A DNA stretch of 64,000 nt from Escherichia coli. Lineage in GTDB: Bacteria > Pseudomonadota > Gammaproteobacteria > Enterobacterales > Enterobacteriaceae. The position numbers are program-made. Below, in pieces: positions 12,001 through 15,000 of the stretch (positions are counted from its first letter, which is position 1; each line of letters begins with the position of its first letter). The stretch lies in the NCBI RefSeq assembly GCF_009931435.1, contig NZ_CP043414.1; one strand, written 5' to 3'.

Positions 12001-15000
12001 GATATTCCCGTTAATGCAGCAAAACCGGGGCGTCGGCGTTATCTGACGCTGGTGATGATCTTTATTACGGTGGTCATTTGTTATGTTGACCGCGCTAACC
12101 TGGCCGTGGCTTCCGCCCATATTCAGGAAGAGTTCGGCATTACCAAAGCGCAAATGGGCTATGTATTTTCGGCCTTCGCCTGGCTTTATACCTTATGTCA
12201 GATCCCCGGCGGTTGGTTTTTAGATCGCGTAGGTTCTCGCGTGACTTATTTTATTGCGATATTTGGCTGGTCAGTGGCGACGTTATTCCAGGGCTTTGCC
12301 ACGGGCTTAATGTCATTAATTGGTCTGCGTGCGATAACCGGTATTTTCGAAGCGCCCGCGTTCCCGACCAATAACCGGATGGTGACCAGCTGGTTCCCGG
12401 AACATGAACGCGCTTCTGCCGTGGGTTTTTATACGTCTGGTCAGTTTGTCGGTCTGGCGTTTCTGACTCCGCTGCTGATCTGGATTCAGGAAATGTTGAG
12501 CTGGCACTGGGTGTTCATTGTCACCGGCGGTATCGGCATTATCTGGTCGCTGATTTGGTTTAAGGTTTATCAGCCGCCGCGCCTGACCAAAGGCATTAGC
12601 AAAGCTGAACTGGATTACATTCGTGACGGCGGCGGTCTGGTGGATGGCGATGCGCCAGTGAAAAAAGAGGCGCGTCAGCCGCTAACCGCCAAAGACTGGA
12701 AACTGGTGTTCCATCGTAAACTGATCGGCGTCTATCTTGGGCAATTTGCGGTGGCTTCTACACTGTGGTTCTTCTTAACCTGGTTCCCGAACTATTTAAC
12801 CCAGGAAAAAGGAATCACAGCGCTGAAAGCGGGCTTTATGACCACGGTGCCATTCCTTGCGGCGTTTGTTGGCGTCCTGCTCTCAGGCTGGGTCGCGGAT
12901 CTGCTGGTACGTAAGGGCTTTTCACTGGGCTTTGCGCGTAAAACGCCGATTATCTGCGGTTTGCTGATCTCCACCTGCATTATGGGTGCTAACTACACCA
13001 ACGATCCGATGATGATTATGTGCCTGATGGCGCTGGCATTCTTCGGCAACGGTTTTGCTTCGATTACCTGGTCGTTAGTCTCTTCTCTGGCACCGATGCG
13101 GCTGATTGGTTTAACCGGCGGCGTGTTTAACTTCGCCGGTGGTCTGGGCGGCATCACCGTTCCGCTGGTGGTAGGGTACCTGGCGCAGGGTTACGGTTTC
13201 GCGCCTGCACTGGTTTATATCTCCGCCGTCGCGTTGATTGGCGCGCTCTCTTACATCCTGCTGGTGGGCGATGTGAAGCGCGTTGGATAATCTTTCAACT
13301 GTGGAATATGCGCCACACCACTGCGCATAATCCATTTTCTTAAAGCCGGTGCGGTCAGGCATCGGCTTTTTACTATTTTGCCGAAGAGTTTTAAACGCAG
13401 TTTGCGGGTGGCGCGCCAGTAGGCGGCGTTGCTCTTCTCCGGTTGCTTGAGTAACACCGAACGCAGAATCTCTGCGCTATCCAGCGCATAGCTAATCCCC
13501 TCCAGTGAGCTGGCGCTGATAAATCCCGCCGCTTCACCAATCAGAAAGGCATTGTCCTTACCGCAGACAAAATCCTGCCAGCGTGAGGGAAACAACACGG
13601 TACATTTCTCACTTTTCACCGCTTTGCCAAACTGGAACTGAAAGGCGCTCATTTTCTCTTTCAGCGTCGTGAAACGCGTCTGACCGTCTTTCATTGGATA
13701 GGCACCGCCAAAGATAAAATAACCGTCTTTGCTGATACTCCATGAGTAACAGTCAGTTATCGCATTATCAAAGATGCAGGAGTAGAACGGCACCGGATGT
13801 TTCTCTGCGAACCACTGCTGGATAGCGACATATTTACGAATTTGATGGTTCGGGTAGAGATGTCGCCGCACCATCGAGTTGGCACCATCGGCACCGACCA
13901 GATAGCGGGCGGTAATGTGTTGCTCCCAGCCGTCTGCGCGAAAAATGACATGCCATTTATCATCCTCATGCCAGATTTTCCGGCACAGGCTGTCGTGGTA
14001 AACCTCAACGCTGGCGGGGATCAGCGATTTCATCCATAAGTCGAAAGCATGGCGATTAATATTGATATAGCTTCGCTGGTAGTTACGTGTAAGCGATGCG
14101 GCTACGTCGACGGTTTTGACGCTGAAAATCTGCGGATTGGCGATCACATCGACAGGAAGCGTCAGTCCATCGCGAATAAAAGATCGCTGAGCGTCCGGTG
14201 CCAGCAGACCGCCGCAAGGCTTGTTGAAACCTTCAGTACCGCACTGGTGCTTTTTATCCAGCGCGATCACCTGCATTTTGCCTGCTAACTTTCGCGCCAA
14301 CGCCGACCCTGCCGGGCCGAGGCCAATAATCGCCACGTCGAAATGTTCCATCTTTTCACTCACATTCATCACGATGGCAAAAGACTATTGTCTGAAAGTG
14401 AAGTCCTTGTGAAGTATGATGGCGGGAACCGTTTTGTATCAGGACCGCGCCATGAAACAGATAACCTTTGCTCCCCGTAATCACCTGCTCACCAATACCA
14501 ATACCTGGACGCCCGACAGCCAGTGGCTGGTATTTGACGTGCGTCCTTCTGGGGCGTCGTTTACCGGTGAGACCATTGAGCGCGTGAATATTCATACCGG
14601 TGAGGTCGAGGTTATCTACCGTGCGTCACAGGGCGCACACGTCGGCGTGGTGACCGTTCATCCGAAGTCAGAGAAATATGTCTTTATTCACGGCCCTGAA
14701 AATCCTGATGAAACATGGCATTACGACTTCCATCATCGACGCGGCGTGATTGCTGAAAGCGGCAAGGTGAGCAATCTCGATGCAATGGATATTACCGCGC
14801 CGTATACGCCAGGAGCGCTGCGTGGCGGCAGCCATGTACATGTCTTTAGCCCGAACGGTGAAATGGTGAGTTTTACCTATAACGACCATGTAATGCATGA
14901 ACGCGATCCGGCGCTGGATTTGCGCAACGTCGGTGTTGCGGTACCGTTTGGCCCGGTCAACGTACAAAAGCAGCATCCGCGTGAATACAGCGGCAGCCAC

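Follow-up and report, generated by a model that had tools for sequence, protein, structure and literature searches.

How do two genes that run into each other tail to tail bring their transcripts and their translation to an end, and does the length of the DNA that they share matter? The question is raised by dgoT and cbrA in an Escherichia coli genome (NCBI RefSeq assembly GCF_009931435.1, contig NZ_CP043414.1), of which one stretch of 64,000 nucleotides, referred to below as the window, was analysed. From its start at dnaA the window is E. coli-like, the best complete E. coli genome matching its first 20 kb at 99.1% identity. dgoT is the last gene of the dgoRKADT operon and lies on the plus strand; its neighbour cbrA lies on the minus strand. 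The dgo operon responds to galactonate via DgoR while cbrA responds to CreBC. CbrA is an FAD-dependent reductase which saturates the alpha-isoprene unit of undecaprenyl-phosphate carriers, leading to colicin M resistance (PMC8469651).

Both reading frames are genuine protein-coding genes, as judged by their high identity to DgoT and CbrA homologues and by their agreement with PGAP. The DgoT translation is 99.5–100% identical to DgoT of E. coli and E. whittamii, and CbrA is 97–98% identical to E. coli CbrA clusters and carries FAD-binding Pfam domains. For dgoT, the PGAP start is 11953 and the start corresponding to the 430-aa K-12 protein is 11998. dgoT terminates with TAA at 13288–13290 and cbrA with the TAA that reads as TTA on the plus strand at 13251–13253; the stop codon of each gene is located inside the reading frame of the other and intergenic DNA is absent (Table 1). 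A convergent 3′ overlap of 40 bp had been claimed from the sequence alone, and this is confirmed both by the position of the stops and by RefSeq: the PGAP annotation of E. coli N3 has the same 40-bp overlap and a 366-aa CbrA, and that of E. coli WL297 places both genes at coordinates identical to those of Table 1. The overlap is real but ordinary, and largely already known; it is present in RefSeq annotation. It resembles convergent overlapping pairs of the 4-bp shared-stop type, in which real genes on opposite strands have their 3′ ends in common. The dgoT-cbrA pair of K-12 has this classic form, as CTAA, and Citrobacter-type relatives have it as TTAA. The overlap differs from such pairs in extending over 40 bp in this strain and in being polymorphic within the species.

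Table 1. Features of the dgoT-cbrA junction (positions are those of the window)
Feature	Position	Strand	Description	Basis
dgoT CDS	11953..13290	+	D-galactonate MFS transporter	ORF list, PGAP, homologue comparison
cbrA CDS, long 366-aa allele	13251..14351	-	colicin M resistance lipid reductase	ORF list, PGAP, homologues
Convergent CDS overlap	13251..13290		40 bp, both stop codons included	ORF list and sequence
CbrA run-on tail	13254..13289	-	12 codons, antisense to dgoT C-terminal codons	homologue alignment, AlphaFold2 model
Switch base	13287		wobble base of the last Gly codon of dgoT (GGA here) and third base of cbrA codon 355	alignment, allele counts
Hairpin H2 and following bases	13302..13341 (hairpin 13302-13334)	+	12-nt arms, 9-nt loop, then TTTTCTT	antisense to cbrA codons
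Hairpin H3 and U-rich tail	13342..13379	+	tail TTTTTACTATTTT; putative dgo intrinsic terminator	terminator scan, folding, recoding

The length of the overlap depends on a single base, at 13287. When the last glycine codon of dgoT is GGA or GGG, codon 355 of cbrA becomes TAT or TAC (Tyr) and the overlap is 40 bp; when it is GGC or GGT, codon 355 is TAG or TAA and the two genes overlap by 4 bp. In an alignment of the window with N3, DH5alpha and an O157-like strain, GGA versus GGC at this position is the cause of TAT versus TAG, and the 40-bp overlap in this strain thus arises because a synonymous change in dgoT breaks the shared-stop arrangement. With a tyrosine at codon 355, cbrA continues for 12 codons up to the next TAA, which is made by the Ser-Tyr codons TCT and TAC of dgoT. 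K-12 (DH5alpha) is annotated by PGAP with the 4-bp overlap and a CbrA of 354 aa.

The two forms are both common. Allele counts for 5,426 complete E. coli genomes were obtained with 55-mers having 13287 at their centre, such that every 28-base megablast seed covers the polymorphic position. The A allele (codon 355 TAT, 40-bp overlap) was found in 1,499 genomes, a count which includes a few tens of matches to a paralogous transporter, so that A and C together exceed the number of genomes by ~56 and the range for A is ~1,440–1,499. The C allele (TAG, 4 bp) was found in 3,977 genomes, the T allele (TAA, 4 bp) in one and the G allele (TAC, 40 bp) in none at the dgoT-cbrA locus. The long form is hence present in ~27% and the short form in ~73% of these genomes. 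The C count was obtained with the flanks of the window; a query with K-12 flanks gave 3,450, which is too low because nearby SNPs removed all 28-mer seeds. In E. coli genomes the G query matched only the paralogous transporter, mostly on plasmids. This paralogue (for example NZ_AP022088.1 and NZ_CP128940.1) is a mostly plasmid-borne MFS transporter with ~91% identity to the 3′ end of dgoT (13262–13306), and occurs in a few E. coli genomes. Outside E. coli, the long form is found in E. albertii (A), E. whittamii (G, as GGG) and Pseudocitrobacter vendiensis (A), and the short form in Escherichia sp. E1V33. The stop-codon polymorphism is described in none of the papers found that mention both dgoT and cbrA. 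Like the embedded terminator considered below, it is a small refinement of familiar phenomena.

It had also been proposed that an arrangement of this kind leaves no room for a terminator hairpin. This proved incorrect: a canonical terminator-like hairpin followed by a U-tract, H3, lies on the plus strand within cbrA. Its stem-loop (13342–13369) consists of an 11-bp stem with six G-C pairs and a 6-nt loop, is followed by TTACTATTTT and is the sole strong terminator-like site detected by the terminator scan in 12300–14600. It begins 52 nt past the dgoT stop, antisense within well-conserved cbrA codons, and has an energy of −18.4 kcal/mol in a 45-nt window (13335–13379). The plus strand from 13281 to 13385 as a whole folds into three hairpins at −39 kcal/mol (z = −5.4), a stability reached by none of 200 shuffled sequences. 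H3 shares with other intrinsic terminators located inside the coding sequence of a neighbour a G+C-rich stem, a short loop and a U-tract 52–90 nt past the last stop of the operon, and its predicted strength is comparable to that of the canonical ibpB terminator (17275–17295). It differs from ordinary embedded terminators in that it is written antisense into conserved cbrA codons and appears to force rare codons. H3 together with its U-tract is hence a predicted intrinsic terminator of the dgo operon. The preceding hairpin, H2, may be a first, weaker terminator adding to H3. Its arms derive from the conserved CbrA residues IMR...AHI and its strength is not significant when compared to synonymous recodings, 299 of 3,000 being as strong.

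For H3 the same kind of comparison gave a different picture. When the cbrA codons were recoded synonymously with local codon usage, the energy of H3 was matched in only 23 of 3,000 recodings (mean −9.6 vs −18.4 kcal/mol), and a terminator-like site was regenerated in none of 5,000. The codons underlying H3 and its tail include the rare ATA, GTA, CGA, GCA, GCT and TTA, with AGA adjacent, and rare codons represent 7 of 16 in residues 324–340 of CbrA vs 48 of 309 upstream (Fisher p = 0.009). The 45-mer covering H3 is matched at 95% identity or more in 5,382 of the 5,426 E. coli genomes, with an inter-strain divergence of cbrA of 2.5–4.9%, and the stem is invariant among the eight E. coli sequences compared. 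Across 80 species, the H3 codons give their strongest hairpins in Escherichia and P. vendiensis, in which dgoT and cbrA adjoin directly without another hairpin. Taken as sequence data, these observations suggest that selection at the H3 codons acts on RNA as well as on protein. The only substitutions seen to break the stem are those of E. albertii and E. coli E69, neither of which has dgoT; O157-like strains and Escherichia sp. E1V33 also lack dgoT but keep H3 intact, so that the argument for decay of H3 after loss of dgoT is based on two lineages. Moreover, part of the H3 hairpin potential stems from the conserved amino-acid sequence: hairpins of −13 to −15 kcal/mol are also found at these codons in some taxa whose cbrA has no dgoT beside it (Budvicia, L038; Citrobacter sp. 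Awk 4, L015).

Published resources were also consulted. The supplements of an E. coli 3′-end mapping paper (eLife 2021, PMC7815308) have no entry for dgoT or cbrA among mapped 3′ ends, and what was accessible of the literature found on dgoT and terminators contained nothing seemingly relevant to a dgo terminator. An Rfam scan of 9000–17000 (E ≤ 1) returned nothing at the dgoT-cbrA junction; a known small RNA or cis-element there was rejected since the scan found only the ROSE element before ibpA. The latter is a ROSE_2 RNA thermometer (RF01832, 100 bits) at 16240–16312 on the plus strand, as annotated in RefSeq genomes. Further tight convergent junctions occur within 10 kb: yidR/yidQ with a 1-bp gap (15666/15668), yidE/yidP with a 4-bp overlap (19113–19116) and the 6-phospho-alpha-glucosidase gene/yidL, also with a 4-bp overlap (23060–23063). 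None of these three junctions includes an embedded terminator comparable in strength to the post-dgoT site.

The cbrA strand is not similarly equipped. No terminator-like site was found on the minus strand within 1.4 kb downstream of cbrA, and a scan of this strand over 8300–14600 gave nothing beyond a weak match of 6 bp within dgoD. Past the stop of cbrA, the minus strand folds no better than shuffled sequences (z = −0.7). Bidirectional terminators, with an A-tract upstream and a U-tract downstream of the stem, have been described for many convergent E. coli pairs. On the minus strand, however, the H3 stem is followed by UUUAAGAAAAUGG, and only UUU, then AAG, is present after the stem; H3 would therefore be a unidirectional rather than a bidirectional terminator. 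The C/G ratio downstream of cbrA is only 1.1–1.5, and Rho-dependent termination of the cbrA transcript is purely our inference.

We consider it likely that three elements together explain the locus: an overlap whose length is set at 13287 and which brings with it a passive tail, a dgo terminator placed antisense within cbrA, and a cbrA gene without an intrinsic terminator of its own. A purine at 13287 turns the cbrA stop codon 355 into tyrosine, and ribosomes would then continue for 12 codons to the next stop of the antisense frame. RNA polymerase transcribing dgo would pass the dgoT stop and terminate 50–90 nt further on at H3 and its U-tract, perhaps assisted by H2. Such a terminator would be antisense in the last ~30 conserved codons of cbrA and would constrain their choice. 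The cbrA transcript would in turn enter dgoT in antisense orientation and be ended either by Rho or by polymerase collision. The 40-bp and 4-bp alleles would differ only in the position at which the cbrA ribosome stops.

The tail-to-tail organization of dgoT and cbrA was found in Escherichia, Citrobacter amalonaticus, C. sedlakii, C. youngae, Pseudocitrobacter, Phytobacter massiliensis and an Enterobacter, and on this sequence distribution the arrangement is old. In Citrobacter-type genomes, in which the two stops overlap as described above, cbrA is 14 codons longer because it is read through a conserved G+C-rich hairpin immediately downstream of the stop of dgoT. In Citrobacter, Phytobacter and Enterobacter sp. 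ENT03 this post-dgoT hairpin (CCAGCCCGCC...GGCGGGCTGG) is followed by a U-tract on neither strand; Citrobacter-type hairpins were located at ~4055–4106 in each of nine loci (L008, L012, L016, L017, L019, L023, L035, L056 and L071). The corresponding 14-residue CbrA tail (QPxxTxGGL...) varies while the hairpin stem is conserved. The stem is 91% paired across nine species with one compensatory change. Compensatory upkeep of this hairpin was rejected since there is one double change, with no excess over shuffles, and the stem is simply conserved. Escherichia does not have the Citrobacter-type hairpin and would rely on H3. In Buttiauxella agrestis dgoT and cbrA are separated by a 62-bp spacer which itself contains a hairpin.

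The dgo side of the junction is not always present. The whole dgo operon is absent from many E. coli (O157-like strains and others), from Escherichia sp. E1V33 and from E. albertii (loci L003, L085, L086, L005 and L006). The deletion boundaries are 8420/13185 and, in E. albertii, lie within a few bases of these (8404/13181); the deletion leaves a 37-codon dgoT 3′ remnant which covers the cbrA overlap. E. coli E69 carries a different deletion (8306/13294). The sharing of boundaries across species suggests an old allele spread by recombination.

If dgo transcription terminates within cbrA and cbrA is read into dgoT, the two mRNAs would be complementary over at least ~90–130 nt with either allele. 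The sequence-only reading had held that the transcripts would be antisense at their 3′ ends, and this view stands: the open reading frames truly overlap without intergenic DNA, antisense transcript overlap is implied by the overlap of the coding sequences, and the pair is among the published excludons of MG1655. Indeed cbrA-dgoT is listed among 165 convergent "excludons" present in at least 50% of 58 MG1655 RNA-seq data sets (ExcludonFinder, NAR 2025, PMC12288877), a convergent excludome which also lists the neighbouring pairs yidQ-yidR and yidX-yidA. The likeness to excludons consists of this listing and of the predicted dgo 3′ UTR antisense to the 3′ coding region of cbrA. The outcome that defines an excludon, mutually exclusive expression or RNase III processing, is for cbrA-dgoT no more than a possibility.

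Could the overlap nevertheless be a functional device, in which polymerase collision or RNase III would make induction of dgo by galactonate depress the expression of cbrA, or vice versa, with the long allele modulating the effect? The inclusion of the pair in the excludome, the conservation of this old abutting arrangement in Escherichia, Citrobacter, Pseudocitrobacter, Phytobacter and an Enterobacter, and the different signals to which the two genes answer (galactonate/DgoR vs CreBC) are all in keeping with this idea. We nevertheless regard it as unlikely. The listing is almost automatic given overlapping coding sequences, dgo has been lost, with cbrA unchanged, from many lineages of E. coli and E. 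albertii, and in Buttiauxella agrestis the same two neighbours lie 62 bp apart. The coexistence of the two alleles at 27% and 73% further argues that the length of the overlap is not under strong selection. The literature searched contained nothing on cross-regulation between dgo and cbrA. A more specific and quite improbable version would be that the embedded terminator, by forcing rare codons (AGA, ATA, CGA and TTA), and the RNA duplex together cause CbrA-mediated colicin M resistance to drop during galactonate use, the A/C polymorphism tuning the shielding of the duplex by ribosomes. If true, such a connection of colicin M resistance with galactonate use would be of modest interest.

The 12 additional residues lie beyond the conserved part of CbrA: homologues from 20 other taxa show good alignment only as far as ~...SGVAHIP (~residue 350), after which they carry unrelated tails of 0–35 aa. 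An AlphaFold2 model of the 366-aa CbrA has a mean pLDDT of 82.5 and a last helix at 335–344, and residues 354–366, with pLDDT below 50 and without secondary structure, are predicted to be disordered. The antisense frame used by cbrA includes 20 stops in the 430 codons of dgoT, about one per 21 codons, and the probability of at least 12 open codons is ~0.56; a run-on of 12 codons is therefore the expected result of stop loss. At the protein level the overlap is conserved on the DgoT side only: the CbrA tail is variable across genera and absent in 73% of E. coli. The possibility had been raised that the conserved CbrA protein ends earlier and that the two reading frames do not truly overlap. The first part holds, in that conservation ends at ~residue 350 and 73% of E. 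coli stop at codon 355, but the second does not, since the stops still overlap by 4 bp. Other variants of the cbrA 3′ end were also observed: E. coli F2_81 (L086) encodes a protein of 351 aa with a 9-nt deletion beside the stop, and E. coli E69 (L007), which is without dgoT, a CbrA of 367 aa. The C-terminus of CbrA is plastic in general.

From the homologue alignment and the structural model, the 12-residue tail is probably a passive, near-neutral extension and not a conserved part of CbrA. The opposite view, that selection maintains it as an adaptive C-terminal extension, for instance as a signal for membrane association or stability, might draw on the identity of the tail sequence in E. coli, E. 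albertii, E. whittamii and P. vendiensis and on the 37-codon dgoT remnant spanning it in dgo-deleted genomes. This identity, however, is explained by conservation of the DgoT C-terminus on the opposite strand (91–100% identity). Furthermore, 73% of E. coli, dgo-deleted strains among them, do not have the tail, which is predicted to be disordered, is replaced by unrelated tails in other genera, and is lacking in the short K-12 CbrA, which is the form experimentally shown to confer colicin M resistance (summarised in PMC8469651). An adaptive role thus appears very improbable. That the true cbrA has 354 codons, like that of K-12, and that the long overlap is a base-call error or an over-extended ORF call, might be imagined from a conserved protein ending near residue 350 and a K-12 CbrA of 354 aa, but this was rejected as having almost no chance of being correct, since codon 355 is TAT here with no earlier in-frame stop, the same allele recurs in ~1,440–1,499 independent complete genomes and in E. 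albertii and P. vendiensis, with GGG in E. whittamii, and RefSeq agrees.

The significance of these observations is small and mainly that of a worked example. For annotation pipelines, CbrA proteins of 354 aa and 366 aa are both correct for their respective strains, and long convergent overlaps in annotations can be real and yet passive. A protein can gain residues through a silent change in the gene on the opposite strand and, where two genes abut, one can harbour the terminator of its neighbour within its codons, with a resulting bias in their usage.
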